Source: a virus
Virus record (IMG/VR): IMGVR_UViG_3300036832_001166
Span: 61,433 to 125,432 of that record
DNA: 64,000 nucleotides
Strand: one strand, 5' to 3'
A model generated the notes under the pieces. It saw nothing but the letters and a program-made list of their open reading frames with translations, was not told the origin of the DNA and ran no database searches. The translations under genes were made by a program, and so were the position numbers. Below, one piece after another: positions 3,388 through 54,973 of this stretch. Position 1 is the stretch's first letter. The number at the start of each line of letters is the position of its first letter.

Positions 3388-4280
3388 TGGCCGTCAGCAA
3401 CCAGGAGTCGAGAAGCGATGGTCTGAAGGTGACGATCTCCGCGTTCGGCAACGGGCTGACCGTCAACAAGCAGGGCCGTCCGCTGCTGCCGCGCCCGTTC
3501 GTGTTCCAGTGCCCGCCGCTGGAGCAGTTCACGATCGCGCACCAGCAGAACTTCGGCACCTACGACACCATCGACGACGACCAGTACTCGCGCCGCGGCT
3601 CGCGTCAGCTCGACACCTGGTCGTTCGACACGCTGGCCATGTACCTCGGCGTCGACGCGCAGGGCCGCTACGAGCCGAGCTGGGTGCCGTACCCGACCCG
3701 CGAGTCGCATGGCTTGCAGTACCAGGCGCCAGAGTGGTACCGCAAGCAGCTCTGGGATCTGCACGATGCCGGGTCGCCGTTCCGCTTCGTCGCCGCGTTC
3801 AAGCGGTCCACAACGATCCGCCGCACGTACGCGACGCTGACCGCCTTCAACGAGGACTACAAGCACGGCGAGGGTGACGTGATCTACTTCAGTGCGGTCA
3901 GCTTCCAGGAGTGGCGCGACCCGGGCGACGCGTCACAACCCAAGCCCCGCGGCTCGGACAAGCTGCCCGCGCACGTGCGCTTCCGCTTCACCGGCGGACG
4001 CTATCTCGCCTATGACACCGAGACGGGCCGGACCATCCCGGCGCGCGGCGGAGCGGGCACGACCATGAACGATCTCGCGCGCTTCTACTACGGCAACGCG
4101 TCAGACTGGCGGCTGATCGCCAAGGCCAACCACCTACGCGGCGGCAGCGGCCTGACGCAGATCTACAAGCACTGGTATCCGCACCGGATCTCGCGCGGCA
4201 AGCCGAACGCCACGATGACGATCCCCAAGCAGCCACACAAGCCCTCTCCGGCCCGTACTGCCCCGGCCAAGGCGAAGTGA
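3387..4280 (+). CDS. Tail tube initiator / LysM-domain baseplate protein
   Basis: LysM-like TMNDLARFYYGNASDWRLIAKAN near the C-terminus; position between tape measure and hub, as in contractile tails. Confidence 0.75.
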   Translation: MAVSNQESRSDGLKVTISAFGNGLTVNKQGRPLLPRPFVFQCPPLEQFTIAHQQNFGTYDTIDDDQYSRRGSRQLDTWSFDTLAMYLGVDAQGRYEPSWVPYPTRESHGLQYQAPEWYRKQLWDLHDAGSPFRFVAAFKRSTTIRRTYATLTAFNEDYKHGEGDVIYFSAVSFQEWRDPGDASQPKPRGSDKLPAHVRFRFTGGRYLAYDTETGRTIPARGGAGTTMNDLARFYYGNASDWRLIAKANHLRGGSGLTQIYKHWYPHRISRGKPNATMTIPKQPHKPSPARTAPAKAK

Positions 4281-13612: not shown

Positions 13613-14548
13613 TTACGCGGCGGTTGTGGGGCTCTCGGGAGCATCCTCGACGGCTTCGCCCTCGATGGGGAGCGATCCGCCGTGGCGCAGCACGAAGTCG
13701 GTGACCTCCTGCAAGATCGCGGTCCGCTGCGCCTGATCGGCTCCGGCGAGCTTGAGCCGCACCTTCTGCGGCAGGAAGCTGCCAGGCCGCAGCCGGTTGG
13801 CCTCCTTGAACGCGCCCTGTAGACGCCGCCCCAGCTCCTCGTCCGGACCCCAGTCGGGCTCCTGCTCGACCGCCTGGTCGGCCTCGACGATCCCGCCGAC
13901 CCGCTCGTCGTAGTGGGCGCCGACCTCGTCCTCGGGGATCAGGCCGGTGATCGAGAACGCCTTGCGTAGCGCCATCGACTCCGCGACCTTCAGGATCATC
14001 GCGTCCGGGTAGTTGGTCCACGCCTTGTTGCTGCGCTTGTAGCTCGCGTACTTGGCCAGGAAGAACGTCGGCTTGCGCCCGTCGCGGAACACGCGGCACC
14101 ACGAGCCGACGATGTTGGACGTCAGCCGCTCCATCGCCGCCACCGGCGCGTAGGTGTGAACGAAACCGTCAGGGCCGCGGGCGATGACGTCCTGGGCGTA
14201 GATGACGTCGCCCTCCATGCCGCCGAACGCGTCGTTGCGGTTGGCGATGGCCAGCAGCCCGTCGCGGGCGACGATCGTCTGGTAGCTCGGCGGCTCGCCG
14301 TCCTTGCCCGGCATCTTCGCCAGGTACACCTGCTTGGCGAACGGGTCGAGCTGGTAGCGCCCGACCAGCTCCAGGAACATCAGGAACGCGTTGTCGTCAG
14401 CGCCGCGGGCGACGGTCCGTTTCATCAGCGCGAGCTGCTCGTTATCGAACGCGAACCGCGCCGGATGCGTCAGCGGCGTCGGCATCGCCCTGACCGTCAG
14501 CTTGCTTCCGGGCCTCTCGGCCTCTGGCTTTACCTCGGTCTCAGCCAT
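13613..14548 (-). CDS. bet: Single-strand annealing recombinase (Bet/RecT family)
   Basis: LDPFAKQVY, IVARDGLLAIA, WTNYPDAMILKVAESMALRKAF; AGAGGAG RBS before ATG at 14548. Confidence 0.85.
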   Translation of the reverse strand: MAETEVKPEAERPGSKLTVRAMPTPLTHPARFAFDNEQLALMKRTVARGADDNAFLMFLELVGRYQLDPFAKQVYLAKMPGKDGEPPSYQTIVARDGLLAIANRNDAFGGMEGDVIYAQDVIARGPDGFVHTYAPVAAMERLTSNIVGSWCRVFRDGRKPTFFLAKYASYKRSNKAWTNYPDAMILKVAESMALRKAFSITGLIPEDEVGAHYDERVGGIVEADQAVEQEPDWGPDEELGRRLQGAFKEANRLRPGSFLPQKVRLKLAGADQAQRTAILQEVTDFVLRHGGSLPIEGEAVEDAPESPTTAA

Positions 14549-15746
14549 TCTGTCTCCTCTGTTCGGCCAGCTCCAGAGAGGCGCGGAGCTGCTCCTCCAG
14601 GTCGGGCTCTGGTTCCATCTGCGGCTTAGGGATGTGGATGTCGAAGCGCGTGCCGATCTCGTCACGGTAGAGATCCTCCGGCGACCGGCCCGTCGCCAGC
14701 GCGTTCGCGGTCTCCTCCCGCGTCGGGCGCCGGACCCGCTTCTGGACGCGGTGGCCGTACACCCGGTTGGCTTTCGCGTCACGGACCGGCACCGGCCCAT
14801 GCACCGCCGCCCACGCCTTCAGCGCCTCCTTGTTCTGAGCGATCGCCTTCTCGCCGACCAGTACCTGCTCGACGGCCAGCTCCGCCTCCTCCTCGCTGCG
14901 GATCGCACCGCGGCGCCGGGCCTTCGGGAAGATCGGGCAGGCCATCGGCCGCGGGCAGTGGCCGCAATGGTTGCCGGGGCTCGGATGCCACACGTCCTCC
15001 TGCACCGACCGGTCAAACCGCTCGATCAGCGCCGCCATGCTCTGCTCGATCTCCGGGAGCTGATCGCGGTACAGCGTCGCCTCCCGCGGCTGCGAGTACC
15101 GCGGATAGAACTCCCGCAGCGTGATCGACGTGAACGGCAGATGGTTGCGGAAGCACAGCAGCGCGTACGCCCGCTGCTGGAAGAACCCCGACTCGGAGAT
15201 CTCCGACGGCGGCGGCAGCCACCAGCCTGTTTTCCAATCCAGGACGATGCCGCGCTCCAGGTTCTCGCCCTCCGCGAACAGGGCGTCGAGCTGCCCGGAG
15301 AAGATCCGCTCGACCGAGCCGCCGTCCGGGTTGGGGTAGTACAGCGTCGCGGCTAGGCGCTCCTCGACCGACACGAGCCCGGCGATGTTCCAGTCCGTCT
15401 CGTGGCAGAACTTCTTGGTCATCCAGATCAGGTCATTGATCTCCTTCATCGGGCAGGTGACCATGTCCTCGATCGGAACGTCGGCCTGCCGCAGCGTCTC
15501 CATCAGGATCGCCAGGCCGACATCAACCTCGATCCGCTCCTCGTCGCGTGCCGCCATCTCGCGCATCATCTTCGCGGCGGCGCGGTGCCAGATGATCCCG
15601 CGTCCGGCCGCCGAGTCAGACCACGTCTTGCGGTAGCGGCGCTCAAACAGGCTGCCGAGCCCGCACTCGTCGAACGCCGACAGAGTGCTCTGGCGCACGG
15701 ACGGGAACTCCTCCAGCGCCCTGGGATACGGCGTGCGCGCGATCAT
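14541..15746 (-). CDS. PD-(D/E)XK exonuclease (RecB/RecE-like partner of Bet)
   Basis: GQLDALF...VLDWKTG...QQRAYA...CGHCP..C; adjacent to bet; preceded by CCGACCGAGGAG. Confidence 0.85.
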   Translation of the reverse strand: MIARTPYPRALEEFPSVRQSTLSAFDECGLGSLFERRYRKTWSDSAAGRGIIWHRAAAKMMREMAARDEERIEVDVGLAILMETLRQADVPIEDMVTCPMKEINDLIWMTKKFCHETDWNIAGLVSVEERLAATLYYPNPDGGSVERIFSGQLDALFAEGENLERGIVLDWKTGWWLPPPSEISESGFFQQRAYALLCFRNHLPFTSITLREFYPRYSQPREATLYRDQLPEIEQSMAALIERFDRSVQEDVWHPSPGNHCGHCPRPMACPIFPKARRRGAIRSEEEAELAVEQVLVGEKAIAQNKEALKAWAAVHGPVPVRDAKANRVYGHRVQKRVRRPTREETANALATGRSPEDLYRDEIGTRFDIHIPKPQMEPEPDLEEQLRASLELAEQRRQNG

Positions 15747-15888
15747 GCGCGGGGTCCTCCTCGGTCGGTTGAGACCATCCTGGCAGGCACGTCGGACGGT
15801 ACTCCGACATCATCCGAATCGAAGTACCGGCGCGTCCTGCATCCAGCGTAGAGTCCGAGCCCGTGTCCCGACCGAACCCGCCCGCTCC

Positions 15889-16476
15889 ATGACCGAAACA
15901 GCCGTTCGGGCTCGGGCGTGGCACCGGCAGGTAGTCGGCAGTCCGCCCAAACCGTGCGCCAAATGCAAGGGCAGGGTGCGCGTGCAAGGCCACCACATCA
16001 TCACGCAGGTGAGGCTTGAGCGCGTCGAGCGCGAGCGTCATCTGGAGCCCGGCACCCTGGTCTGGGATCCACGCTCAGGTGTCGTCCTTTGTGAGCGATG
16101 CCACGCCCGGCATACGAACGCTTTCAGCCGCATGTCACGCTCGCTGCTCACCGCGGAGAACTGGGCGTTCATCAACGAGCTGGAGCTTGACTGGTGGATT
16201 GCTCGCTACTACCCGGCGCCCCCGGCGGGACACGAACCCCACACCGAACCCCGAGGAGAGCGCAATGGCACGGCAGAACAGCAACGGCCAGGTCGTCGAC
16301 GAGCAGGGCGAGCGGGAGTCATTGGACGACATGGACGGGCCGGAGGTGCTGGGCTCCCCGATCGAGGGCACAGCGGAGCAGCTCAGCTTCGATCTCGGGT
16401 CCGAGTGGGATCTGTCGGACTCGACGCTGAAACTGGCGCCGGTGCCGCCGCTGGCGGTGCAGGGACAGTTCTCTGA
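15889..16476 (+). CDS. HNH-like Zn-binding protein (3' end overlaps the next gene)
   Basis: CAKC...QGHHII...GVVLCERCH; the C-terminal ~70 codons run into the next gene and look non-coding. Confidence 0.55.
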   Translation: MTETAVRARAWHRQVVGSPPKPCAKCKGRVRVQGHHIITQVRLERVERERHLEPGTLVWDPRSGVVLCERCHARHTNAFSRMSRSLLTAENWAFINELELDWWIARYYPAPPAGHEPHTEPRGERNGTAEQQRPGRRRAGRAGVIGRHGRAGGAGLPDRGHSGAAQLRSRVRVGSVGLDAETGAGAAAGGAGTVL

Positions 16477-16615
16477 GGGTGACCGGGTCAGGGTCGTGCT
16501 GGAGATCGAGGTGGAGTACATCGCCTTCCCGCCGATCAAGGACAAGGGGTTCAGGGTCGGCACCGAGCGCCGACACTTCGGGCAGATCTTGTCTGCCGCT
16601 CACCTGACGGACTAG
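16265..16615 (+). CDS. Hypothetical acidic protein
   Basis: GAGGAG RBS before ATG 16265; phage-like codon usage. Confidence 0.7.
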   Translation: MARQNSNGQVVDEQGERESLDDMDGPEVLGSPIEGTAEQLSFDLGSEWDLSDSTLKLAPVPPLAVQGQFSEGDRVRVVLEIEVEYIAFPPIKDKGFRVGTERRHFGQILSAAHLTD

Positions 16616-16686
16616 CCCGCAAACTGCGGGATCTTTCCGGTTGTGGGCGCCCGGGGGCGGGTGTAACGTGAATGGTCTACCGGCCA

Positions 16687-16705
16687 AAGCGCACGTCGTG
16701 TGCTC
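16687..16705 (+). promoter_or_regulatory. Palindromic operator copy downstream of a sigma70-like promoter (TTGTGG-N17-TAACGT, 16640-16668) for the primase-helicase
   Basis: AAGCGCAC-GTC-GTGTGCTC matches the genome-wide TAGCRCAC-N3-GTGTGCTA consensus. Confidence 0.55.
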
Positions 16706-16752
16706 GGCTGTCTTGTTCGCGTGGAACGGGCCCGGCGGGCCCTGGAGGTCGT

Positions 16753-18564
16753 ATGCCGTCTGAGGCTGTCACCAAGGTGCTGTCCCGTCTGTGGGCGTTG
16801 GACTGTGACGCGAAGGGCTCAGAGCAGCACGGCTGGAACGCCAAGTGCCCGGCGCACGAGGACCGCAGCCCGAGCCTGAAGCTCGACCAGGGCGACGACG
16901 GCCGCGCGCTGATCTACTGCCACGCCGGATGCACCCTGGAGGCGCTGACGGCCGCGATGGCGCTGGACCCCTCAGACCTGTTTGAGGCCGAGCCCGCGCC
17001 GATCCCCGAGCGGGTCGTGATCGAACGCTACGACTACGTCGACGAGGACGGTACGTTGCTGTTCCAGGTCGAGCGGATGCGCCCCAAGGCGTTCCGCCAG
17101 CGCCGCCCCAACGGCCACGGCGGCTGGGAGTACTCCCTCGGCGATGTGCGCCGCGTCCTGTACCGGCTGCCGAAGGTGATCGAGGCGGTCAAGGCCGGGG
17201 AGATCATCTGTGTCGTCGAGGGCGAACGCGACGTCCACACCCTGGAGGGCAAGGGCAAGGTCGCGACGACGTGCCCCGGCGGCGCCGGGAAGTGGCGCGA
17301 CCAGTACTCAGAGACGCTCCGCGGCGCGAAGGTCGCGATCATCCAGGACGCCGACCCGCTCGATCCGAAGACCGGCAAGCGCCCCGGCCAGGATCACGCC
17401 CTGCAGGTCCGCGCGGCGTTGGACGGCGTCGCTGCTGCTGTCAAGGTGTTCCAGCCCGCCGTCGGCAAGGACGTCACCGACCACGTGAAGGGTGGCCTGC
17501 CGCTGTCTGAGCTGGTCGACGTCACCGACGGGGAGCCTGCTAGACCGAAGATGGAGGTGCTGTCCGCGCGCGCCATGATGGAGCTGCCGGACCCTGACCA
17601 GGAGGGGTACCTGCTCGGCCCGCTGATCTACCGCGGGCACCGCATCGTGATCGGCGGCTGGACCGGCCACGGAAAGACCACCTTCTGCATGCACATGGTC
17701 GCCTCCGCCGTCGAGGGCCGCGAGTTCCTGCGGCCCGGCTGGACCGGCAAGGGCAAGCTCAAGGCGCTGGTCGTCGACGTCGAGCAGGGCACCAAGACCG
17801 TCAAACGCGTGCTCCGCGAGGTTGGCCTGGACCGCTCCGAGCAGGTGCAGTACCTACGCGTCGCTGACGGGCTCGCGCTCGACAACGACCCGGACGCGAT
17901 CGCGTTCATGGAGAAGACGCTGCACGAGGGCCACTTCGACATCGTCCTTGCCGACCCGCTGTACAAGCTCGGCCGCGGCGATCTCAACGACGCGCGCGCC
18001 GCCACCGACCTGATGCGCCGGTTCGATGACTGGCGTGAGCGCTACGAGTTCGCGCTGCTGCTGCCTATGCACTGCCGCAAGCCGAAGGAGACCGCCAAGC
18101 TGTCCGCGCATGACTTGTTTGGAAGCAGTGCCTATCAATGGGGTGCCGAGGCCCTGCTCGGGATCGAGCGCAAGAGCCGGTCGCTCACCTGGCTGCACTG
18201 GTGGAAAGACCGCGAGGGCGAGCTGGTCGAGGACGGCGCGCAGCTCGGCGGCCACTGGAACCTGCACTTCGACCGGCGCCGCGGGTTTGAGAAGTACCCC
18301 GAGCATGAGCAGGACAAGCTCGTCGAGGTGTCCGCCACCCCCCGCTTCGATCTCGACGAGTTCTGCCTCGACGCGATCAAGCAGCTCGGCACCGCCACCC
18401 GCGAGGACATCCACCGCCGCCTGCGCCACCAGGGCCGACTCGATGTCAGCGTCGCGAAGATCACCCGCGCCTGCGAGCGACTCGGCGGCCGCGGCGTCAT
18501 GAGCAACGGCGAACACTTCCTCAAGGACCGCGCCTACTACCTCCAGGACGAGCTGACGGTGTAG
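16753..18564 (+). CDS. DNA primase-helicase (Zn finger + TOPRIM + AAA_25/RepA-type helicase)
   Basis: CPAHEDRSPSL...YCHAGC Zn finger; VVEGERD and QDAD TOPRIM motifs; Walker A GWTGHGKTT; Walker B IVLADP; GGAGG RBS. Confidence 0.9.
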   Translation: MPSEAVTKVLSRLWALDCDAKGSEQHGWNAKCPAHEDRSPSLKLDQGDDGRALIYCHAGCTLEALTAAMALDPSDLFEAEPAPIPERVVIERYDYVDEDGTLLFQVERMRPKAFRQRRPNGHGGWEYSLGDVRRVLYRLPKVIEAVKAGEIICVVEGERDVHTLEGKGKVATTCPGGAGKWRDQYSETLRGAKVAIIQDADPLDPKTGKRPGQDHALQVRAALDGVAAAVKVFQPAVGKDVTDHVKGGLPLSELVDVTDGEPARPKMEVLSARAMMELPDPDQEGYLLGPLIYRGHRIVIGGWTGHGKTTFCMHMVASAVEGREFLRPGWTGKGKLKALVVDVEQGTKTVKRVLREVGLDRSEQVQYLRVADGLALDNDPDAIAFMEKTLHEGHFDIVLADPLYKLGRGDLNDARAATDLMRRFDDWRERYEFALLLPMHCRKPKETAKLSAHDLFGSSAYQWGAEALLGIERKSRSLTWLHWWKDREGELVEDGAQLGGHWNLHFDRRRGFEKYPEHEQDKLVEVSATPRFDLDEFCLDAIKQLGTATREDIHRRLRHQGRLDVSVAKITRACERLGGRGVMSNGEHFLKDRAYYLQDELTV

Positions 18565-18841
18565 GCGCGATCGCGATGGAGCCCCCACCCCGATAGGGCC
18601 ACCAAGGGGACCACGGTCGCTCCTCGCCTGGAGCGGAGGCCGTCCGGTAGACCATTGAAGCGCGGAGCTTGTAGCCCGGGAACGGGGTGAAGTGCGTGGC
18701 GCGCTGAGGTCGACGGAGCCCGACGAACTGTCGATGGACTCAGCGTCGGAAGCTCAGGTTTTTCTGCTCCCCAGGGGCAGTAGGCCTAAGCCCTCGCCTG
18801 CCTCGGATCTTGCATCGGAAGGGCCCGACGGTAAGGGGGGG

Positions 18842-18850
18842 TGCTAACAT
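18842..18850 (+). promoter_or_regulatory. Extended -10 promoter for the stand-alone GGY-NN array
   Basis: TGC-TAACAT (TGnTAnnnT) 12 nt upstream of the first GGCCC unit, overlapped by a partial operator. Confidence 0.5.
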
Positions 18851-18862
18851 CGTGTGCGATGC

Positions 18863-18967
18863 GGCCCGGCCAGGCTGGGCTAGGCGCGGCGAGGGAGGCC
18901 CGGCAAGGCAGGGCTCGGATGGGCTTGGCGCGGGAGGAGGGATCGGCCCGATGGTCGCTCCCTCCTC
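18863..18967 (+). ncRNA. Putative guide-like ncRNA: 14 GGY-NN units plus 3' hairpin
   Basis: GGCCC GGCCA GGCTG GGCTA GGCGC GGCGA GGGA GGCCC GGCAA GGCAG GGCTC GGATG GGCTT GGCGC, then stem GAGGAGGGATCGGCC-cgat-GGTCGCTCCCTCCTC. Intergenic. Confidence 0.7.
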
Positions 18968-19442
18968 AACTCTCCAGCCGCTGCTTGAGTCGCTCGATCG
19001 CGGCTTTGGCGGCTTCAACTTCGCCGGGCTCGGCGTTCGCGGACGGGTCGAGCACGCGTTCCATCAGCTCGATCCGGCGTTGCAGCGGGCGGCGTTTGGC
19101 CATGCTGTTGAGCACGTCGTTGACGCTGTCGCGCAGGTACTCCAGCTCTTCGACGAACCGCTCCTCGTCGTACTCGTCGATCACCTTCTCGACGGCGTTG
19201 TCGTATGTGCTGGTGTAGGTGAGGTCGGCCGCGATCAACTTCTCGATGTACCGGATCACCGCGATCAGGTCTTCGGTCTTGCGGTGGTATTGGTCGCGCA
19301 GGCCGGGCCGGTGCCGGTAGCTCGGCTTGGTCGTCCAGCCGTACCATTGCTGGAACGCGGGCTGGGTGTAGATCGACCCTTCGTTCACGTGGTACAGCTC
19401 GCCGTCGATGACCGACCGGACGTAGATCTTCTTGGGCATCAC
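18966..19442 (-). CDS. Hypothetical protein with DUF2786-like C-terminal helical hairpin
   Basis: Good codon usage; C-terminus RIELMERVLDPSANAEPGEVEAAKAAIERL; coupled to the upstream gene. Confidence 0.65.
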   Translation of the reverse strand: MMPKKIYVRSVIDGELYHVNEGSIYTQPAFQQWYGWTTKPSYRHRPGLRDQYHRKTEDLIAVIRYIEKLIAADLTYTSTYDNAVEKVIDEYDEERFVEELEYLRDSVNDVLNSMAKRRPLQRRIELMERVLDPSANAEPGEVEAAKAAIERLKQRLES

Positions 19443-20095
19443 GCCGCCTCGTCGAGTCGGTCTTCCAGCTCGGCGGCCTTGGTGTAGAAGCTGTCGGCCT
19501 CCTCAGGGTTGCCGAGCGCGAGCACGCTGTCGGCCTTGTCGCGCAGCGCCTTGATCTTGTCGCGGAGCTGCTTGTCGCCGCGCTGCGTGTCGATCCCGGC
19601 CACGAGCCGCGTGAGTGCGTCGAGCGCCGAGACGGCGCCGTCGTACACCTCTTCCAGCTCGTTGTCGGGCACCGAGTCCTTCGACCAGTAGATCATCGGC
19701 TGGATCCGCCGGGCGTGCAGCGCCAGCTCCAGCACCTTGCGGCGCTCCTGGATCCAGCGCGAGCGGCTGGACGTGCCCGCTTCCTTCTCCATCCGGCGGT
19801 AGCCGCTGATCTGCGTCGCGAGCCCGCTTAGCTCGTGCTTGGGCCCGCTGGCGGCGCGCTCCTTGTAGGCGATCACGCACCGGATCCCGAACAGGATCGT
19901 CGGCGACAGCGGCTTACGCTCGGTGCCGTCAGCCCGGCGCGCGGGCCAGTCGTCAGTCCCGGCCTTGGACGCGGCCACGATCGCGTCCCGTGGCTTGCGC
20001 CGGATCAGCATCTTCTCCACCCACTCCACCACGGCATCGTCGTGCGCGATGCTGTCGCGGCCCCCGATCAGGGAGGTCCAGTCTCTTGCCATCAT
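19439..20095 (-). CDS. Hypothetical protein with DUF2786-like C-terminal helical hairpin
   Basis: GACCGAGGAG before ATG 20095; C-terminus KIKALRDKADSVLALGNPEEADSFYTKAAEL. Confidence 0.7.
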   Translation of the reverse strand: MMARDWTSLIGGRDSIAHDDAVVEWVEKMLIRRKPRDAIVAASKAGTDDWPARRADGTERKPLSPTILFGIRCVIAYKERAASGPKHELSGLATQISGYRRMEKEAGTSSRSRWIQERRKVLELALHARRIQPMIYWSKDSVPDNELEEVYDGAVSALDALTRLVAGIDTQRGDKQLRDKIKALRDKADSVLALGNPEEADSFYTKAAELEDRLDEAA

Positions 20096-20195
20096 TGTCT
20101 CCTCGGTCTTTGATGCAGGGGGCCGGGCTGCCGGTGCTAGCGGAGCGAGGTCACCCGTCGCTGGCCTAGCAGCGCCACCCCGGCCCTTCCTGCGG

Positions 20196-20915
20196 TTACT
20201 CGTCCTCTTCGCCGTTCGCTTCGGCGCGGAGGGTGTAGGCGGCCAGGGCCTTGTCACCGGCCTGCTTGGCTGCCTTCTTCAGAGCCGAGCGGGCCCGGCC
20301 CTTGAGCGTCGGAAGCTGCCGGGTGAACAGGCCCACCTGCTCAGCGGCACCGACCAGCGCGATCTCGGCCTTGTCGGTCATCGGTCGGATGATCTCGGCC
20401 TCGACGTACTTCGCCTCGTTGGTCAGGAACAGGTAGTCGCCTGCCTTGACCAGCACGAGGTCGTCCAGCTCGTCGCGGACCCAGCGCTGCAGGGTGCCGC
20501 CGTACTTGTGGTCGACCAGCTTCCAGATGTGCTGCTCGGCCTTGTGCCACGCGGTGCGGGCAAGCGCGTCCTGCGCGTCCCACGCGTCGGCGTCGCCGTG
20601 GGGCGGCGGCACCGGCTCGTTGGTTAGCAGCGCTCCCGCGACCAGGTAGCGGTGGATCGGCACGTCGAGCCGCTCCTCCTTGGCCGCCCCGACAACATGG
20701 TCCTGAGCGATCGCGAAGATGGCCTTCTTGATCGCTTCGTTGTCGACCTTCTCCACGGGCGTGATCTTGCTGTCGTCGACGTACGTGAACTCGTACTCGC
20801 GCAGCAGCGCCCGCATCGCCAATGCCTCGGTGACCGAGACGCTGGCGCTTGACCTGACCGCCTCCTCGTAGGCCTGGACGGCCTCCGCGAGGTGGTCCTG
20901 GGATTGTGTAGCCAT
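20196..20915 (-). CDS. Hypothetical helical protein, first gene of the leftward operon divergent from the RAMP-like gene
   Basis: GGAAGGAAGG RBS before ATG 20915; coding-like composition. Confidence 0.75.
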   Translation of the reverse strand: MATQSQDHLAEAVQAYEEAVRSSASVSVTEALAMRALLREYEFTYVDDSKITPVEKVDNEAIKKAIFAIAQDHVVGAAKEERLDVPIHRYLVAGALLTNEPVPPPHGDADAWDAQDALARTAWHKAEQHIWKLVDHKYGGTLQRWVRDELDDLVLVKAGDYLFLTNEAKYVEAEIIRPMTDKAEIALVGAAEQVGLFTRQLPTLKGRARSALKKAAKQAGDKALAAYTLRAEANGEEDE

Positions 20916-21008
20916 GCCCTTCCTTCCTGCCGGTGCGAGGTTGCCCGTCGCTCGGCGGTTGACTCCGGTGCGAGGGCCTGGCTCGGCCCGTCGCTCGGCA
21001 TGGCCGGG

Positions 21009-21058
21009 ACTGTAGCACACGACTTGTTTGACGGGTCGCACGAATCGTGTGCTACAGT
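21009..21058. promoter_or_regulatory. Divergent promoter pair formed by a perfect 14-bp inverted repeat
   Basis: ACTGTAGCACACGA (21009-21022) and TCGTGTGCTACAGT (21045-21058); each arm carries TGC-TACAGT pointing outward. Confidence 0.8.
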
Positions 21059-21152
21059 TCGCCCCCTCGGCCATGCATGGCACGGTAAGGCTGGTACGGC
21101 CGGGGCACATAATGCGAACTGCCTCAATGACGAGGCAAGGGGGCAAACCCAC

Positions 21153-21869
21153 ATGATGAATGGGCCTGTCCGACGGGTGATCCCCGTCGGATACCAGGTG
21201 TACAGGCTGCGGTTGGATGGACAGTCGCCGCTTCTGATGAACTCGTCCGAGTACGACCGGGCGAGCGACACATACCGAGCGTTCAAGGCGCTCGGCAGCA
21301 AGCGCGGCAAGACGATCGAGGACGAGCTACGTCTCGGCGAGCTGGAGTTCCACCTCGGGCTGCACTACGACGAGAAGGTCGGAGTGTTCATCCCCGGGAT
21401 CAACCTCAAGGAGCTGATCCGCTCCGCCGCCACGAAGTACCGCAAGGGCGAGGAGATCCGGCGCAGCCTGATCGTGCCGGACTACCGGATCCCGCTGATC
21501 TACGACGGCCCGCGCACGCCCGCGGAGCTGTACGCGCAGGGCTATTACGACACGCGCATGGTCGCGAACGCTGGCGCCGGTTCCGGCCGCGTGCCGAGGA
21601 CACGACCCGCGTTTGAGGAGTGGGCGATCGAGACCGACATCGCGTTCGATCCGGAGGATCTCGACGACGACCTCGTCCAGAACGCCATCGACCGCAGCAC
21701 GAAGTACGGCTTCGGGGATGGGCGCTCGATCGGCTTCGGCGCGTTTGAGCCGACGTTGACATTTCTCAGGCGTCAGTCGAAGGTCAGCAAGGCGGATGCG
21801 GTCAAGGCTCCGAACGGCCGCGCGAAGACCAACCTGGCGGCGGCGACGTCGCGGATCCTGAGTTCGTAG
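21153..21869 (+). CDS. Solitary RAMP/Cas7-like RNA-binding protein (Vipr-like candidate)
   Basis: N-terminal strand YRLRLDGQSPLLMN and C-terminal glycine-rich loop YGFGDGRSIGFGAF (GxGxxRSxGxG), hallmarks of the RAMP fold. No other cas gene or CRISPR array in the window. GGY-NN arrays begin at its stop codon. Confidence 0.7.
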   Translation: MMNGPVRRVIPVGYQVYRLRLDGQSPLLMNSSEYDRASDTYRAFKALGSKRGKTIEDELRLGELEFHLGLHYDEKVGVFIPGINLKELIRSAATKYRKGEEIRRSLIVPDYRIPLIYDGPRTPAELYAQGYYDTRMVANAGAGSGRVPRTRPAFEEWAIETDIAFDPEDLDDDLVQNAIDRSTKYGFGDGRSIGFGAFEPTLTFLRRQSKVSKADAVKAPNGRAKTNLAAATSRILSS

Positions 21870-22043
21870 GCCTTGGCGCGGTAGGGCGCGGCCCGGCGGG
21901 TTCGGCACGGACGGCTCGGTTGGCCAGGCCCGGACCGGCAGGGCTCGGCCGGGCGAGGCTCGGCACGTCCGGCTAGGCGGGGCATGGCACGGCACGGGTC
22001 GTTCTATGCGGGGGCCGGTCGAATGATCGGCCTCCTGCGTAGA
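21869..22043 (+). ncRNA. GGY-NN array 1 (about 26 units) with 3' hairpin
   Basis: GGCGC GGTAG GGCGC GGCCC ... GGCAT GGCAC GGCAC GGG, then an 18-bp stem with one bulge and a GAAT loop (22003-22043). Confidence 0.75.
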
Positions 22044-22046
22044 CAC

Positions 22047-22278
22047 GGCTGGGCGCGGTTGGCAAGGCTCGGATGGCGTGGACTGGCTAGGCTCGGAACG
22101 GTTGGGCGTGGTAGGCGAGGCGGGCGAGGCGAGGCGGGCAAGGCCCGGCTTGGCGAGGTTGGTAAGGCGGGGTACGGCATGGCAGGCTTGGCACGGCGTG
22201 ACATGGCGGGGCAATGCCCGGCGTGGCACGGCAAGGCACGGCACGGGATCACCGGCAGCCTTCGGGCTGCCGGTGATC
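22047..22278 (+). ncRNA. GGY-NN array 2 (about 41 units) with perfect 3' hairpin
   Basis: GGCTG GGCGC GGTT GGCAA ... GGCAA GGCAC GGCAC GG, then GATCACCGGCAGCC-ttcg-GGCTGCCGGTGATC (22247-22278) followed by ACTTT. Confidence 0.75.
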
Positions 22279-22311
22279 ACTTTCGTCTGCGGCCGGTCGT
22301 AGACTCACGCT

Positions 22312-22836
22312 GTGATCGAGTTCGTGGTTCTCGGCAGGCCAGTCACGAAGGGTTCGACGACGTCGTTCGCTGCCAAGCGGAAGGACGGCACGCTCGTCAC
22401 GCGCGAGAACGGCAACCCGGTGGTCGTGACCCGCAACGCGTCCGGCGCCCGCGGCCGCACCTGGGAGAACGCCGTTGCGAGCTGCGCCCTGGAGGCGCGC
22501 GAGCTGGCCGGGGGCCGCATCGCCCGCGGCGAGCCGGTCGGCATCGAGGTGGTCTTCTTCCAGCCGCGGCTCGCCTCCCACTTCGGCACCGGCCGCAATG
22601 CGTGCAAGCTAAAGGACTCCGCGCCGCCGTTCCCGGCCACCCGGCCGGACGTCGATAAGTACCTGCGCGCGGTGCTCGATGCGCTCACTTCGGTGCTCTA
22701 CGCCGACGATGGACAGGTCGTGACCGTCCGCGCGGAGAAGCGGTTCGGCGATCCGGCGCGCGCGGAGATCCGCTGCTGGGTAGTGTCTGCGCTACCGGTC
22801 GACGGTCAGCTTGGCTTGGAGCTGGCGGTCGCCTAA
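22312..22836 (+). CDS. rusA: RusA-family Holliday junction resolvase
   Basis: FVVLGRPVTKGS; RPDVDKYLRAVLDALTSVLYADDGQVV. Confidence 0.85.
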   Translation: MIEFVVLGRPVTKGSTTSFAAKRKDGTLVTRENGNPVVVTRNASGARGRTWENAVASCALEARELAGGRIARGEPVGIEVVFFQPRLASHFGTGRNACKLKDSAPPFPATRPDVDKYLRAVLDALTSVLYADDGQVVTVRAEKRFGDPARAEIRCWVVSALPVDGQLGLELAVA

Positions 22837-22895
22837 AGGTTCGTACCGAGGAGACGACCGGCCTGGGTTCCACGCACCCGGGCCGGTCACCCCGG

Positions 22896-23174
22896 CTACG
22901 CCCAGCCCGCGAGCGTGTCGACCTGCTTGCGCCCCTGACGGCTCTTGTCCAGCGCCGCCTTGTGCTCGTCACCGGCGGCGCGACGCTCGTGGTAGATCGC
23001 GCTCTCAAGCTCAGCGATCGCGACGTCGCGCAGCGCCTTGATGTCAAGGTCGGCGTTGAGCTGCGCGATCACGACCGCGTGCAAGAGCGCATCAGCTCGG
23101 CGCCGGGCCTTCCGCGCCAGCGTCGCCCACCTCGGTGGCTGCATCGCCTTGAGCTGTTCGCGGGACAGGCTCAC
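22896..23174 (-). CDS. Hypothetical protein
   Basis: GTGA-coupled to the upstream gene; helical coding sequence. Confidence 0.55.
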   Translation of the reverse strand: MSLSREQLKAMQPPRWATLARKARRRADALLHAVVIAQLNADLDIKALRDVAIAELESAIYHERRAAGDEHKAALDKSRQGRKQVDTLAGWA

Positions 23175-23875
23175 AGCTCCAGCCCGTCCCGCGTGCGCTG
23201 TTCCATCTGGCTGATGATCCGGCGGCCCATCGCCCAGCAGCCGCCCGGCTGCCGCGGCGCCAGCGACCCGTACACGATCCACGGCCAGCGCTTCTGCAGG
23301 CCGTCGGCGAGGATCCGGTGAAAGCCTTCGGTGTGGGTTTGGAGTCGAACTCCCTTCGTCCTCGTCTGGTACGGCGAGGCGAGGTGCGCGGCCTCGTGGT
23401 AGATCAGCTCCAGCCCGCCCTCGTAGCTGGCGTTGCTGCCGAACGTGAACCACACGTCGAACCCGCCGAGGACGGCGCGGCCGGTGTGGTAGTGCTTGTC
23501 GCCGCGGCGGATCGTGATGTTCAGATCGTCGATCGTCGGCTTGCTCCTGGCCGACCAGCCGTCGAAGAAGCCCATGTCGGTCAGGGCGCGGCGCAGCTCA
23601 GCGCGGACGTCCAGCTCGCGCTCGCGTCCGCGCGCGTCGTTCAGCTTGACGATCCAATGCTCGCGTGCCTTCTCCCGCTTCTGACGCGCACGCGCCGCCT
23701 TCGCGACCCGGCCGCGTTCGCGCTCGCGCTCCAATGCCGGAGCGTGACGCTTGACCAGCCGACCGGTCTCAAGTGAGCACGGCCAGCAGAAGCGCCTGAC
23801 GTCGTCGGCGCGCATCCGCTCCGGCGCGAGCACGCCCGAGTGATTCGGGTTGTCGCATATCCACGTCCTGGCCAT
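23171..23875 (-). CDS. SprT-like zincin metalloprotease with N-terminal Cys/His motif
   Basis: LIYHEAAH (HExxH) followed by H..GFHRIL; CDNPNH...CWPC. Confidence 0.6.
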   Translation of the reverse strand: MARTWICDNPNHSGVLAPERMRADDVRRFCWPCSLETGRLVKRHAPALERERERGRVAKAARARQKREKAREHWIVKLNDARGRERELDVRAELRRALTDMGFFDGWSARSKPTIDDLNITIRRGDKHYHTGRAVLGGFDVWFTFGSNASYEGGLELIYHEAAHLASPYQTRTKGVRLQTHTEGFHRILADGLQKRWPWIVYGSLAPRQPGGCWAMGRRIISQMEQRTRDGLEL

Positions 23876-24075
23876 CAGTACCACCGCGGCGTCCGCCGCG
23901 TGGCGAGATGCCATCCGTCGCAGAGTGTGCAGCGGTAGGCGGTGACGTTGTAGCCGTAACGCTCGGCGTAGTGCATCGCCTCCGCGTGGCTGTCGAACCG
24001 GCGCTTGGGTTTGCCGTCAGCGGTGAAGTGCTCGCCGACGATCCGCTGGCGCGAGCGCTGACGCTTGCGCATCAT
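23875..24075 (-). CDS. Small Zn-ribbon protein
   Basis: AYRCTLCDGWHLA motif; preceded by CCGACCGAGGGAG. Confidence 0.7.
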   Translation of the reverse strand: MMRKRQRSRQRIVGEHFTADGKPKRRFDSHAEAMHYAERYGYNVTAYRCTLCDGWHLATRRTPRWY

Positions 24076-24281
24076 CCGCTCCCTCGGTCGGGGTGCTCGG
24101 GGCAGCCTCGGCAGCGCGGCAGGTGCCACTTCTCGCGGCCTGCCGCGTAGTCGAGGTAGCCGTCGTACCAGGCGTCGGGCGCGTTCGTGGCGTCGCCGTG
24201 CTCCAGTGTGGCGGCGCTGCCGCCGGAGTAGCGCCAGCCTCGGTTGTACCAGCGCTTGTACTCAGCGCTCAGGTCGATCAT
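24072..24281 (-). CDS. Small hypothetical protein
   Basis: Preceded by operator-promoter (24331) and CCGACCGAGGAG (24287-24298). Confidence 0.7.
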   Translation of the reverse strand: MIDLSAEYKRWYNRGWRYSGGSAATLEHGDATNAPDAWYDGYLDYAAGREKWHLPRCRGCPEHPDRGSG

Positions 24282-24330
24282 CAAAGCTCCTCGGTCGGAT
24301 GGTGCGGCCACGAGGACCGCACCTCCAGTG

Positions 24331-24349
24331 TAGCACACGTCGTGTGCCA
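24331..24349 (-). promoter_or_regulatory. Operator/extended -10 promoter (leftward)
   Basis: TAGCACAC-GTC-GTGTGCCA; the minus strand reads GTGTGC-TACACT. Confidence 0.75.
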
Positions 24350-24354
24350 GTCGG

Positions 24355-25011
24355 TTAGTCGATGCGCGACTGGGCCCAGGCCTCGATGCCTGCTTCGCGC
24401 AGCACCTTGGCGATGGCCGTGGCCGCCGCATCCCACCGCGCGTAGGACTGCGAGTACCGGTCCCCGCACACCTTCCAGGTGCTCATGGCCACGCCCCCGG
24501 CGTAGCTGTCGCGCCGCGCCATTCCCTCGCTGAGGAGGTAGCGCGCGAACCGTGAGCCGCCGGGTTTGACGTTGACCCAGGCGGTCCCGCAGATACCCTC
24601 GCTGACGCCGTAGATCGGCTGAGAGGGATCCGCGCCGCCGTCGTCGCCGCCGGTCAGGGAGCCCATCACATCGCGGGGCGTGTACACCACCATCGGCGTC
24701 GGCACGGCGCCGCGGAACGCGGCCTCACCGGCCTCACCGGCTCGGGCGATGAGCGCCTTCATGTCGGCCTTGCTCATCTTCACCGACCCGCCGCCCTGGA
24801 CCTTGCGCACGCAGCTCGTGCAGATCGCGTAGTCACGCATACCAGCCGTGTCCTTACGCTCGATCCGCCCGCGGGTCCAGGAGCCACGCCGGTCACCCTT
24901 GATCTCCGCGACGTCCTTACCGCATATCGTGCGTGTAGACTCGGCGTCGGCGGCGTAGTGCCAGCGGGGTTGACGGTAGGCGCCCGGATTAGTTTTCCGG
25001 ATCGCTTCCAC
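24355..25011 (-). CDS. Hypothetical protein
   Basis: GTG start 10 nt after CCGACCGAGGAG (25022-25033); coding-like. Confidence 0.65.
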   Translation of the reverse strand: MEAIRKTNPGAYRQPRWHYAADAESTRTICGKDVAEIKGDRRGSWTRGRIERKDTAGMRDYAICTSCVRKVQGGGSVKMSKADMKALIARAGEAGEAAFRGAVPTPMVVYTPRDVMGSLTGGDDGGADPSQPIYGVSEGICGTAWVNVKPGGSRFARYLLSEGMARRDSYAGGVAMSTWKVCGDRYSQSYARWDAAATAIAKVLREAGIEAWAQSRID

Positions 25012-25066
25012 TTGCTGATACCTCCTCGGTCGGGGGGAGTCGGCCATTCCGGCCGCATCTAGAGTG

Positions 25067-25085
25067 TAGCACACATCGCGTGCTA
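25067..25085. promoter_or_regulatory. Single palindrome acting as two divergent extended -10 promoters
   Basis: TAGCACAC-ATC-GCGTGCTA with TACACT leftward and TATCAT rightward; CCGACCGAGGAG on both sides, facing outward. Confidence 0.8.
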
Positions 25086-25119
25086 TCATTGTCGGCGTAA
25101 CCCGACCGAGGAGAAAACG

Positions 25120-25311
25120 ATGCACTACGGATACGACGAGCTGGACTGGGTCCCGTCGGCTGACGGGTGGGCGCGCGCTACGGTGACGCTCTGGCGGAAC
25201 GACACCGCGTGGAACCCGGCCAGCACCAAGCGCGACATCTACGGTCCGGCGCGCATTGAGTACACGCAGGGACCGGACGGGGGCGTCGACGCCGCCGTGT
25301 CGGACGCGTGA
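25120..25311 (+). CDS. Small hypothetical protein
   Basis: CCGACCGAGGAG at 25102-25113 before the ATG. Confidence 0.7.
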   Translation: MHYGYDELDWVPSADGWARATVTLWRNDTAWNPASTKRDIYGPARIEYTQGPDGGVDAAVSDA

Positions 25312-25595
25312 CGGTGGACACTGACCCGCGCGCGGAGGAGCGAGCTGCGCGCGAACAGCACCGCCAGCTCACGCGCGCTCGCAAGGAGGCCGACCGCAAG
25401 CGCGAGAAGGAGGCCGGTACGAAGCTCGCGGGGATCATCCGCGAGGAGCTGGCCCGACCTCGCGCGCGCGCCTGCCGGTGCGGGATCACCTCACGCACGA
25501 CGCGCGCCGAGCTTCAGGCGCTGGGCGCGGGCTGCACCACCGGTAGGTGGGTCTGTCCGGTGCTGGATACGATCCGGCGCCGGATGGACCGGTAA
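25308..25595 (+). CDS. Hypothetical protein with Cys motif
   Basis: GTGA coupling; CRCG...CTTGRWVC. Confidence 0.6.
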   Translation: MTVDTDPRAEERAAREQHRQLTRARKEADRKREKEAGTKLAGIIREELARPRARACRCGITSRTTRAELQALGAGCTTGRWVCPVLDTIRRRMDR

Positions 25596-25611
25596 CGCCA
25601 ATCGTGTGCTA
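25593..25611 (+). promoter_or_regulatory. Degenerate operator/extended -10 promoter upstream of the HTH gene
   Basis: TAACGCCA-ATC-GTGTGCTA followed by CCCT (TGC-TACCCT). Confidence 0.55.
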
Positions 25612-25702
25612 CCCTGAAGGAATCATGACGACCACCAGGGGGAGCGCGAAAGCGAAGTCGGATCGCGGCCAGGCTCACGTGAGTCGCTCCAGAGAGGGAA
25701 CG

Positions 25703-25966
25703 ATGAGCAAGGAGAACGGCAGCGAGCCGATGGGGCCGCCTAAGCAGCCGCGCGCGGTCAGGCAGCTCGACATCGTCGGGACGGCCGAGGCCGCGAAGCT
25801 GCTCGGCGTCGAGCGTCCGCGCATCGGCCGGTGGGTCAAGCGCGGCGTGATGCCGCCGACCGCGGCGATGCTGCAAGCGACACCGGTCTGGTACCGCCGC
25901 GACATCCTGAAGATGCAGGGCTGGGTCGAGCGCAACCGCCGCAACCGCGAGCCGGTGGCGGGCTGA
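25703..25966 (+). CDS. Helix-turn-helix DNA-binding protein (HTH_17/AlpA/excisionase-like)
   Basis: IVGTAEAAKLLGVERPRIGRWVKRGVMP...PVWYRRDI; GAGAGGG RBS. Confidence 0.8.
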   Translation: MSKENGSEPMGPPKQPRAVRQLDIVGTAEAAKLLGVERPRIGRWVKRGVMPPTAAMLQATPVWYRRDILKMQGWVERNRRNREPVAG

Positions 25967-25970
25967 CTGC

Positions 25971-26189
25971 ATGCACCGCGCCGAACGCGCCCGGCTGGCG
26001 CGCGAAGCGGCGCTGGAACGCATCCGCCGCCAGCAGGAGGAGGGGCTGCTCACGATCCGCCAGATGACCCCGGAGGAGCGGGAGCGTTGGGGGCCGCCGC
26101 GCGACCGCCCGACGGGCCGCAAGCCGGGCTACCGGGCGTCGCTGGCGCGGTTCCAGCAGCCCGCCGACGGCGTCCGCGACGACACGTAG
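25971..26189 (+). CDS. Small basic hypothetical protein
   Basis: Fills the gap in the + operon; LTIRQMTPEERERWG. Confidence 0.55.
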   Translation: MHRAERARLAREAALERIRRQQEEGLLTIRQMTPEERERWGPPRDRPTGRKPGYRASLARFQQPADGVRDDT

Positions 26190-48502: not shown

Positions 48503-51500
48503 ATGGATTGGGCGACAGCAGCGGCGATCGTGGCGGACAGGACACCGAGCCTGTCCGATCCACCCGACGCGCCAGGGGATGACCATGAGTTCTGGCAGCG
48601 GGTCAAGACGCTCGTCGACGGCGACGGCGACAGCATCGCGCTGAGCGAAGCCGAGCGCTACGACGAGATCCTGCACCCGCGCGACCGCAGCGGCAAGTGG
48701 ATGGCGAAGCTGGGGCTCTCGCATCTCCGCGAGGTCGGCGGAGCGCCGCGCGACGAGCTGCTCGGCAAGATCCCCAAGGACATCGACTACGTCGCCGCCG
48801 AGACCCCGGAGCGGATCAAGCAGGCGGTCGAGCAGGCAGGCGGGAAGACCGAGGAGCTGATGGTCCGCGACCGGCTGGTCGGCGTCCGCGCTACGCACCC
48901 GGCGTTGCCCGTCGGTGGCGTCGAGATCGTTCCCCCACGCGTGGAGGCGAGCACCGGGCCGGGGCGACACGACTTCGAGATCGTGCCGCACCCGGACCTG
49001 TATAGCCACGCCGAGCCGGGCCACGCTATGCCTCGCCACGCCCCACCCCGCCGAGCCGGGCCAGACCTCGCCGGGCCAAGCCCAGAGCAGGTTAGCCGGA
49101 TGCTGGCCGACGACGCGCAGCGTCGCGACTTCACGATCAACACTCTGCTGAGAGATCCCGCGACCGGCCAGCTCACCGACCCGACCGGCCACGGCGAGCA
49201 GGATGCGCGCAACCGGGTGTTGCGCATGGTTCACGACACGAGCTTCCAGGAGGACCCGCTGCGCATGCTGCGCGGTGCGCGCTTCGTCGCCCAGCACGGG
49301 CTGGAGCCCGACGCCGGGACGCTGGCAGCGATGCGCCGCGACTCCGGCGGGATGACCGCGCTGACCAAGAAGGGCGTCTCCGGGACCGTCCAGGACGAGC
49401 TGCGCAAGCTGCTGATGGGCGAGCACCCGGGCAAGGGTCTGCGGCTGATGCGCGACACCGGCATGTTCCAGACGCTGCTGCCCGAGCTGGCGCCGATGGT
49501 CGGATTTGATCAACGTTCGATCTACCACGAGCACGTGCTGGACGAGCACACGTTCAACGTGATCGACGAGCTGGCGCGGATGGGCGCGAGCCACGACGCG
49601 CGGCTGGCGGCCCTGTTTCACGACAGCGGCAAGCCGCTGACCGCCAACCTCAAGCCTGACGGCACGTACCGCTTCCACTCTCACCCCGAGCACGGCGACC
49701 ACGCCGACGTCGGCGCTGACATCGCGCGCCGCACGCTGAACCGCCTGAACTACCCGGCGGACACGATCAGCCACGTCACCGGGCTCGTCCGCGAGCACAT
49801 GCTCACCGCCGTCGAGAAGCCGACGCCGGTCAAGGCCCGCCGTCTGCGCGCCGCTCACTCCGACCGGTTCCTGACCGACCTGCTGGACCACAAGCAGGCC
49901 GACATGGAGGGCCACGGCGAAACGATCGCCAAGAGCCTGGAGGGCGTCCACAAGCTGCGCGACCTGCTGGCTGAGAACGCGCAGGCGCCGCGGTCGCTGA
50001 AGGATCTGAAGATCGACGGCCGCGACCTGATCGCGCAGGGCGTCGAGCCCGGGCCGCGGCTGGGCGCCATCCTGCGCCAGCTCCTGACCGAGGTGGTGCT
50101 CAACCCGGACCTGAACCGCCGCGAATGGCTGCTGCAGCGCGCCGAGCGCCTGGCCGTCACGCCGATGCAGGAGAGCGTCTACTCCGAGCTGCTGCATCCG
50201 CGTGACCGCGCGGGGAAGTGGATCGCGGGACGCCGGAAGCTTGTCGACCTGGACGCTATCGCCAGCCGCGCGCACGCCGGGCAGGTCGACAAGTCGGGGC
50301 GCCCGTACATGGAGCATGTGCGCGCCGTCGCCGACTCGGTCAAGCCCGAGGCGCGGCCGGTCGCGTTCATGCACGACGCGCTGGAGGACACGCAGATGGC
50401 CCCGCAGGATCTGGAGGGGGTCCTGGAGCCGCACGAGATCGAGGCGGTCAAGCTGCTGACCCGGCCGAAGGGCGACGGGATGAGCTACGACGCCTACATC
50501 GAGAAGATCGCGACGGCGCCCGGCCCGGCTGGGGAGCTGGCGCGCGAGGTCAAGGCCGCTGACCTGAACCACAACCTCGGCCGGATGAGCAACCTCGACG
50601 CGAAGACGCAGGCGCGGCTGCGTCCGCGCTACGAGGCGGCTATCGCGCGGCTGTCACCGGCGCCGCACCCGTTTCAGCAGGCGGGCGACCCGGAGAACTT
50701 CGCGGGCGTCACCCGCGAGCAGGCCGAGGCGCACCTCCGGCGGCTGTATGAGATCAGCCTGCGCTCACCCGAGCATGCCGCCAATCTTGCGTGGTACGAC
50801 ACGCAGCATGCGCTGATCCAGGATGTGGCCGCAGAGCACGGCGTCGACCCGGTCACGATGGCAGCAGCGATCTCGGCGACGTCGCCCCAACTCGCGTGGG
50901 ATCACACGTCGAAGGCTGGTGTGTTCACCCGCCCGAACCTGAGCCTGGCGCTCAACGCCCTGCGGCTCGCGCGCGCCTTCCCGGACGAGCCCGCGCCGCT
51001 GCTGGTCGAGCGGCTGCTGGCGGCGGCGGAGGGCCAGAAGGGCCCGAGCGAGGTTCAAGGTCTCGGCAGCTCGGTGGAGAAGGCGATCAGGATCTTTCGC
51101 GGCGAGGATCCCGACAAGGTGCTGACCGCACCGAAGACCCGGTCGTTCTACAACAACCTCGTCTGGCCCGAGCTGAGCACAACGGTCACCGTCGACGCGC
51201 ACATGGCGCGCGCCGGGCTGGGGATCCTGGAGAAGAAGGGCTACGCGCAAGCGGACAAGGCCATCGAGGAGAAGGCCAAGGGATCCGGCTACACGTGGAT
51301 GGCGAACCGCATCGAGGCGATCGCGCGCGAGTTCGGCGTGCTCCCCCACCAGGCCCAGGCCGCGATCTGGGTCGAACGCAAGCGCGAGTCAGACGAGGTC
51401 GAGCGGCTGGCCAAGGAGGCCGAGAAGAAGCGGTGGGCGAGCCTGACGAAGGAGGAGCAGGCGGCGGAGCGCGCGGCGAAGAAGGCCGAGCGCGAGCGCA

Positions 51501-54953: not shown

Positions 54954-54973
54954 CCAACACGAGGAGAGCTGAA

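Follow-up and report, generated by a model that had tools for sequence, protein, structure and literature searches.

The GGY-NN repeat array at 18842-18967 is, with a probability of about 0.8, the gene of a detached guide RNA (vrRNA) of roughly 105-110 nt, belonging to a VIPR system and carried by a VIPR-positive phage. As judged from sequence, it is predicted to target the primase-helicase gene in sibling phages; the allele carried by the phage itself falls just under the published threshold for a target.

The VIPR systems described in 2026 come mostly from phages of enterobacteria and Pseudomonas and comprise the Vipr protein, an ancestral RAMP, and vrRNA guides built of GGY/NN units, with one protomer per unit (2026 bioRxiv preprints). 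The NN dinucleotides of the vrRNA pair with double-stranded DNA, every third target base being skipped; the targets are mostly genes of competing phages, the skipped base falls on the wobble position, and this alignment has been claimed to prevent escape by silent mutation (2026 bioRxiv preprints). The threshold used to search for vrRNAs is at least 4 GGY/NN (YNNGG) units, and type II guides have 9-16 (2026 bioRxiv preprints). In the type II system of Escherichia phage SUSP1 one vrRNA is located upstream of vipr and three downstream (bioRxiv 10.64898/2026.04.26.720920, 10.64898/2026.04.26.720927), and the tails of type II vrRNAs form conserved pseudoknots (2026 bioRxiv preprints). Solo vrRNAs have been found on satellites and on phages lacking vipr (bioRxiv 10.64898/2026.10.15.759431).

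The guide analysed here is encoded in a complete genome of 125,432 bp with 68% GC and direct terminal repeats, belonging to a soil-type phage. The right half of this genome constitutes the window, i.e. the whole stretch of 64,000 nt that was analysed. The positions of the relevant features are collected in Table 1.

Table 1 Features of the probable detached guides, the vipr locus and the predicted target in window coordinates
Feature	Position	Strand	Remarks
Primase-helicase gene	16672-18564	+	AAA_25; phrog_239; predicted target: its homologues in related phages
Own copy of the targeted motif in the primase-helicase gene	18109-18144	+	19/24 NN match
Extended -10-like element TGCTAACAT	18842-18850	+	followed by a 12-nt spacer
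GGY-NN array, 14 units	18863-18931	+	sequence reading
Twelve target-reading GGY/NN units	18863-18921	+	gapped in-frame match to the primase-helicase motif
Two 3'-proximal units (GGCTT GGCGC) and GG	18922-18933	+	no target match; candidate 3' handle
Tail hairpin, 14 bp and one mismatch	18934-18967	+	overlaps the convergent stop codon
Convergent core gene	18966-19442	-	separates the detached guide from the vipr cassette
vipr gene	21153-21869	+	sole copy in the complete 125,432-bp genome
Two linked GGY/NN arrays, about 25 and about 41 units	21869-22278	+	both end in strong hairpins
Own copy HPALPVGGVEIVPPRV of the motif of the second detached array	48896-48943	+	21/32; 60 nt from the array
Second detached array	48956-49096	-	-10-like GCTAACCT at 49096-49089; units 49082-49003; hairpin 48995-48959

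Structure and setting of the array

The detached guide is situated in a 400-nt gap between the primase-helicase gene and the convergent 18966-19442 gene. Its units, repeated with a period of 5 nt, follow one another in the order GGCCC GGCCA GGCTG GGCTA GGCGC GGCGA GGGA GGCCC GGCAA GGCAG GGCTC GGATG GGCTT GGCGC. Twelve of the 14 have the form GGC-NN; the GGY rule is broken by the remaining two, the 4-nt unit GG-GA and the unit GGA-TG. When a 125-kb genome was simulated 40 times with a second-order Markov model and both strands were scanned, the longest GGY chain had 10 units, and none of the 40 simulated genomes reached the observed 12 with at most two skipped. The array is followed by a hairpin of 9 + 5 bp around a 1x1 mismatch, with a 4-nt loop and a folding energy of -28.3 kcal/mol (z = -2.0; 11 of 200 shuffled sequences fold equally well). 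Its final two bases are shared with TCA (18966-18968), the stop codon of the minus-strand gene, and the hairpin may act as a bidirectional terminator.

The preliminary description of this DNA had listed 14 units with their NN string, a stem with one mismatch at the stop codon of the convergent gene, an intergenic location 2.2 kb from a RAMP-like gene, and the same design as in the arrays at 21.9-22.3 kb. The NN string agrees exactly, the stem is found where it was placed, and the distance from the array to the vipr start codon amounts to 2186 nt. The array is intergenic. Some plus-strand ORFs do run across it, but they overlap with a gene that has 98% identity in a related phage. The shared design was borne out as well: the detached array and the two linked arrays all close with GGCRC-GGG, and a hairpin comes directly after. 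The hairpin sequences differ among the three guides, and the tail of the detached one is the least pronounced (z of -2.0, against -5.0 and -7.1 for the linked arrays). The junction GGCAC GGCAC GGG of the linked arrays resembles the last two units of the detached guide; these near-constant ends, together with the missing target match of the final two units, suggest that the latter may serve as a 3' handle.

It had also been proposed that the array has its own extended -10 promoter. The match to such an element holds: TGCTAACAT contains GCTAACAT, one of exactly two copies of the octamer GCTAACMT in 125 kb, and these copies are positioned 12 nt and 6 nt upstream of the two detached arrays. Its confinement to the two detached arrays lends indirect support to a dedicated -10 element, and with it to a putative promoter of their own. 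Of the standard promoter/operator motif present in 24 copies in this genome, the element fits only the 3' part, GTGCTAnnnT, the upstream half being missing. A generic sigma-70 promoter and terminator scan of 18400-22500 gave no promoter and a sole terminator at 22247-22278, and the 300-nt spacer upstream of the array has no significant structure. Because no terminator was found between the helicase gene and the array, read-through from this gene into the array may occur.

The multicopy motif itself, TAGCGCACGATGTGTGCTAnnnT, is a strong, conserved and partly palindromic promoter/operator sequence with about 24 copies genome-wide. Its sites in the window include 21017(-), 21050(+), 24335(-), 25071(-) and 25081(+), as well as 30315, 31077, 33734, 36215, 51591 and 63186. 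The motif suggests a phage-wide regulator that would be bound over an extended -10 element. The divergent TAGCGCACGATGTGTGCTAnnnT promoters at 21017 (minus) and 21050 (plus) serve the leftward genes and vipr, respectively. In the leader between the vipr promoter and the start codon the array finder indicated about 7 GGY-spaced units (21069-21108, plus strand).

Between the detached guide and vipr, beyond the convergent core gene, are the ORFs 19439-20257 and 20196-21152. Neither belongs to an informative family and neither has homologues adjoining vipr in other genomes, so they are not established accessory genes. The closest relative of the phage, the VIPR-less L008/G001 (122 kb, 99% complete), encodes a product 98% identical to that of the convergent gene. 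Across 13613-26122 of the window the primase-helicase is 77% identical between the two phages and the flanking genes 90-98%, and the place of the 19439-22280 block (the two ORFs above, vipr and its arrays) is taken in the relative by unrelated genes. The gene replacement and the uneven identity indicate mosaicism around the VIPR cassette. The search of the window with Rfam gave no match at gathering thresholds, nor was there one in 18400-22400 at E <= 1, and no tRNA genes were found in the window.

Vipr protein and the linked arrays

The protein encoded at 21153-21869 is, on the grounds of sequence homology and predicted structure, a Vipr, homologous to SUSP1 Vipr and with a Cas7/Csm3-like fold. 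A phmmer comparison with the PDB entry 36pp ('SUSP1 Vipr protein') gave an E value of 1.1e-15, and a profile built from 36 homologues of the phage protein improved it to 3.5e-25. The residues of SUSP1 Vipr that contact RNA have been assigned to the G-loop (D177-W178-R179), the thumb (R138) and the bundle (K33) (2026 bioRxiv preprints). In the profile alignment the G-loop (GDWRP vs GDYRP) and the thumb (YRP vs (T)RP) are both conserved, and a basic residue is found opposite K33; H17 is not conserved, its place being taken by Asn/Ser in the phage protein. The AlphaFold2 model of the phage protein has a pLDDT of 89, and its top fold matches are Csm3, Cmr4 and type VII Cas7 chains.

A single-protein search for Vipr relatives returned none in viral contigs; an alignment-based search did find relatives. 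Same-strand GGY-NN arrays were located directly beside the gene in 9 of the 10 viral-contig loci with a Vipr relative. In the Vipr clade of the phage the arrays are long, ranging from 12 to 127 units, and the GC-rich hairpins that terminate them vary in sequence. One Vipr homologue has been annotated from a Solirubrobacteraceae genome. The closest viral-contig relative, with a Vipr of 68% identity, has downstream of vipr one unbroken array with a single hairpin at its end (L025, 8929-9619); its length of about 127 units far exceeds the 9-16 units of the characterised guides. The two linked arrays of the phage contain no 12-unit window that matches its own genome at >=20/24.

Predicted target, own allele and competing explanations

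For the target reading the published rule was followed: the NN dinucleotides are paired, one base is skipped after each, and a target has to match at 80% or more of the NN positions. Applied to the dinucleotides in reverse complement, this gives GCN AAN CAN GAN CTN TTN GGN TCN TCN GCN TAN CAN TGN GG. The stretch corresponding to 12 of the 14 units, CAN GAN CTN TTN GGN TCN TCN GCN TAN CAN TGN GG, spells HDLFGSSAYQWG of the primase-helicase. The units GGGA and GGATG count as full units since the register passes correctly through both. No target is matched by the units TT and GC nearest to the tail.

The preliminary description had suggested that gapped patterns of this kind be sought in co-occurring phages and hosts, and the scan of IMG/VR with the 12-unit pattern gave perfect matches (24/24) in five contigs of related phages (L003-L007). 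All five are in frame and fall on the same motif in primase-helicase homologues of 60-69% amino acid identity, the NN dinucleotides occupying codon positions 1-2 and the skipped base the wobble position in every case; over all 14 units they score 24-25/28. Two more primase-helicase homologues, with 22/24 and 21/24, are also above the 80% threshold. Scrambled guides reached at most 19/24 in 300 trials on 0.85 Mb of DNA. There was no match to the pattern in 596 Gb of prokaryote genomes, and the metagenome search gave one, in a 110,271-bp record taken as the same contig as the viral L005. None of the target contigs or their genomes has vipr, and the same guide was found in no other carrier among viral or metagenome contigs. 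The description had further proposed that the RNA is a trans-acting guide acting with the 21153-21869 protein, and this proposal is supported by the homology to SUSP1 Vipr, the Cas7-like fold and the array-adjacent relatives.

No self-target with at least 80% NN match exists in the whole genome. The best self-match genome-wide falls on the phage's own helicase motif, which precedes the guide by 719 nt and has the same direction of transcription, with 79% over the twelve units, narrowly below the published cut-off, and 20/28 (71%) over all units (18103-18144). The own allele has five mismatches, all of them due to TTG for Leu and AGC and AGT for Ser in place of the CTN, TCN and TCN of the targets. 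As a result, in the centre of the footprint two neighbouring units do not pair at all and a third pairs by half. Given the codon usage of 19 phage genes (9,861 codons; TTR 3.6% of Leu and AGY 37.8% of Ser), the joint chance that the Leu and both Ser codons all belong to the off-target families is 0.005. Furthermore, 7 of the 12 codons of the own motif end in A/T against a GC3 of 0.90, making it the most A/T-ending 12-codon window of the gene and placing it in the top 0.3% of windows in the 19 genes. By the skip rule, the identity of the wobble bases is expected to be irrelevant to targeting. In the homologues inspected by eye, too, the same helicase motif is unusually rich in codons ending in A/T, with approximately 3-5 of 12 in L003, L007 and L008.

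The closest relative described above carries identical TTG/AGC/AGT codons at the motif; it has neither vipr nor an array, and its intergenic region is non-homologous. The occurrence of these codons in a VIPR-less phage points to one event shared by descent and not tied to carriage of the guide, so that recoding for the sake of self-tolerance is only partly supported. The recoding could be older than the guide, or pressure from phages of this kind could have selected it as an escape allele. Switching between codon families is not discussed in the 2026 VIPR preprints.

If the array is a VIPR guide, its transcription would start a few bases after the TAACAT -10 sequence and end at the tail hairpin. 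The phage's single Vipr would polymerise along the RNA, one protomer on each GGY-NN unit, hiding the GGY bases and presenting the NN dinucleotides. According to the published mechanism, the resulting filament would bind double-stranded DNA and block transcription. The silencing of a replication gene of a rival would be expected to favour the phage in mixed infections. The sequence itself shows the array, the hairpin, the homology of Vipr and the perfect gapped in-frame matches; that the array is transcribed from a promoter of its own, that the RNA is loaded onto Vipr and silences a target, and that the recoding is adaptive are steps that we infer.

In an alternative explanation Vipr would act on the primase-helicase gene of the phage itself and not on that of rivals: guided there by the partial 19/24 match, either of the RNA or of the array as part of the 3' region of the helicase mRNA, it would adjust the expression of this gene. 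Such autoregulation is improbable. It is favoured by the position of the best self-match in the genome, by the rarity of this score (out of 300 scrambled guides, just one attains 19/24 when compared with the own genome), by a match only just short of the threshold and by the lack of a detected terminator between the helicase gene and the array; however, it is the relatives that are matched perfectly, while the mismatches of the own copy are concentrated in two adjacent units and half of a third, and the preprints report self-matches that are consistently below non-self ones, avoiding autoimmunity. The guide might instead be a decoy or anti-VIPR RNA that titrates or redirects the Vipr of a competitor, like the solo vrRNAs of the SUSP1 satellites, since stand-alone vrRNAs have been described in that role (bioRxiv 10.64898/2026.10.15.759431) and a core gene separates the detached guide from the vipr cassette. 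This is very unlikely in a phage that has its own vipr and whose detached array ends like its own linked arrays; in addition, the predicted target of the guide is no multicopy decoy site but a gene essential to rivals, and none of the target contigs carries vipr.

The two irregular units, the modest z of the hairpin, the weak promoter match and the lack of conserved copies in viral or metagenome contigs would also suit a decaying remnant of an array that once flanked vipr and has ceased to be expressed or loaded. Decay would not leave intact a perfect 24/24 in-frame match to the genes of five rivals, and the unique -10 octamer is common to both detached arrays, which makes a remnant highly improbable. 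Lastly, period-5 GG repeats could in principle constitute a binding site for a TRAP-like ring protein or an array of two-tetrad G-quadruplexes, and the mycobacteriophages Quico and Florinda have similar arrays with no Vipr detectable in their genomes. A repeat RNA unrelated to VIPR would explain neither the gapped perfect match to a conserved string of codons nor the tight pairing of arrays with Vipr homologues; this scarcely credible explanation was dropped, as the VIPR preprints and the target match account for the design.

Second detached array and comparison with known systems

The second detached array consists of 16 perfectly phased units followed by a hairpin with z of -3.5. It is antisense inside a CCA/polyA-polymerase-like gene (48503-51586, plus strand), where it forms a 25-aa in-frame insertion absent from the relatives G001 and G002. 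Read by the same rule, it decodes to [FL]P[DE]LPSGGV[DE][IM]VPSVY, a motif of the same gene family. The HPDLPPGGVEIVPPRV motif of the relatives matches it at 23-24/32 (72-75%), the maximum among 500 scrambles being 22; among IMG/VR viral contigs it has no exact 12-unit target. Both detached guides are thus found beside the copy that the phage itself has of the gene they decode to, a copy which they match less well, and the linked arrays have no strong self-match. Two further G-rich period-5 signals on the minus strand, at 54865-54955 and 57423-57544, proved on reading not to be clean arrays.

Under the VIPR guide reading, detached guides that are placed beside the resistant allele of their carrier might constitute a linked poison-antidote cassette. 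We put this forward tentatively, at somewhat short of even odds. In such a cassette the guide and the resistant allele would not be separated by recombination in mixed infections. The arrangement fits with the distances, 719 nt from the first guide to the own helicase motif and 60 nt from the second to the CCA-enzyme motif, and with the private -10 octamer that both detached guides have and that occurs nowhere else in the genome. If it is true, a six-fold family switch (Leu CTN to TTR, Ser TCN to AGY) would be the one synonymous escape from wobble-aligned VIPR; the switch occurs in this phage and in the VIPR-less relative, which would then be an escape variant.

As a class, such guides are already known from VIPR. 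The present case extends the same gapped reading rule to a distant, high-GC Vipr clade, with a target readable as an essential conserved helicase motif. It indicates that 4-nt GG-NN units keep the register and that the final two units need not read a target. The own and foreign alleles make a natural self/non-self pair that differs at the read positions by synonymous Leu/Ser family switches only, a ready test of mismatch tolerance and also of the published claim on escape by silent mutation. What would be new, if true, is the linkage of guide and resistant allele, together with codon-family switching as a route of escape; two detached guides with a unique common promoter element, each next to its own-allele counterpart, point to a linkage logic not described before.

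The nearest characterised counterpart is vrRNA1 of Escherichia phage SUSP1. Both are built of GGY/NN pentamers, the 14 units being within the range of 9-16; both phages have a separate guide upstream of vipr besides the downstream arrays; in both the target is read wobble-aligned with a 1-nt skip and the predicted targets belong to competing phages; and the Vipr proteins are homologous (E 3.5e-25), with conserved G-loop and thumb residues. Unlike in SUSP1, a distance of 2.2 kb with three leftward genes separates the guide from vipr; one of the three is a core gene that a VIPR-less relative has as well. Its tail is predicted to be a plain hairpin of non-conserved sequence, as opposed to the conserved pseudoknot of SUSP1; units of 4 nt are tolerated and keep the register, the last two units read no target, and the linked arrays have about 25-41 units, with up to 127 in relatives.

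The solo vrRNAs of F5 satellites and VIPR-null SUSP1-like phages are likewise stand-alone guides outside a vipr operon, with wobble-aligned targeting and a self-match below the match to relatives. They borrow the Vipr of a competitor, whereas the phage analysed here encodes its own, and they target vipr genes, vrRNAs, satellites and host REP decoys and not a replication helicase. With vipr 2.2 kb away, the guide is detached, not solo in the sense of Lopez et al. Arrays of 49 GGC-NN units are found at 3951-4204 in each of the Mycobacterium phages Quico (L001) and Florinda (L002), of the genus Cheoctovirus. They follow immediately on gp56, in the early right arm, and in the Florinda annotation the array appears as a hypothetical protein. 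No Vipr homologue is detectable in the two genomes; gp56 of Quico was considered as a Vipr and rejected, having no detectable Vipr similarity. The array may be solo vrRNA-like and would then be available in cultured, tractable phages.

The guide also resembles the crRNAs of Class 1 CRISPR systems, in which RAMP proteins with a Cas7 backbone assemble into a filament along the guide RNA and bases are flipped at regular intervals, and the fold matches to Csm3 and Cmr4 agree with this. It differs in having no repeat-spacer array and no contiguous spacer, specificity being spread over dinucleotides. CRISPR arrays have direct repeats of about 25-40 nt and accompanying cas genes; here the period is 5 nt, no Rfam match is obtained, and the window contains no cas genes besides the Cas7-like Vipr. 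An analogy for the placement is offered by the free-standing homing endonucleases of T-even phages, which act in marker exclusion as a weapon against the allele of a rival and are encoded beside the resistant allele of the carrier. A detached VIPR guide would be the RNA-guided counterpart of such an enzyme, with the difference that, unlike homing endonucleases, the characterised VIPR systems silence their targets and do not cleave them.
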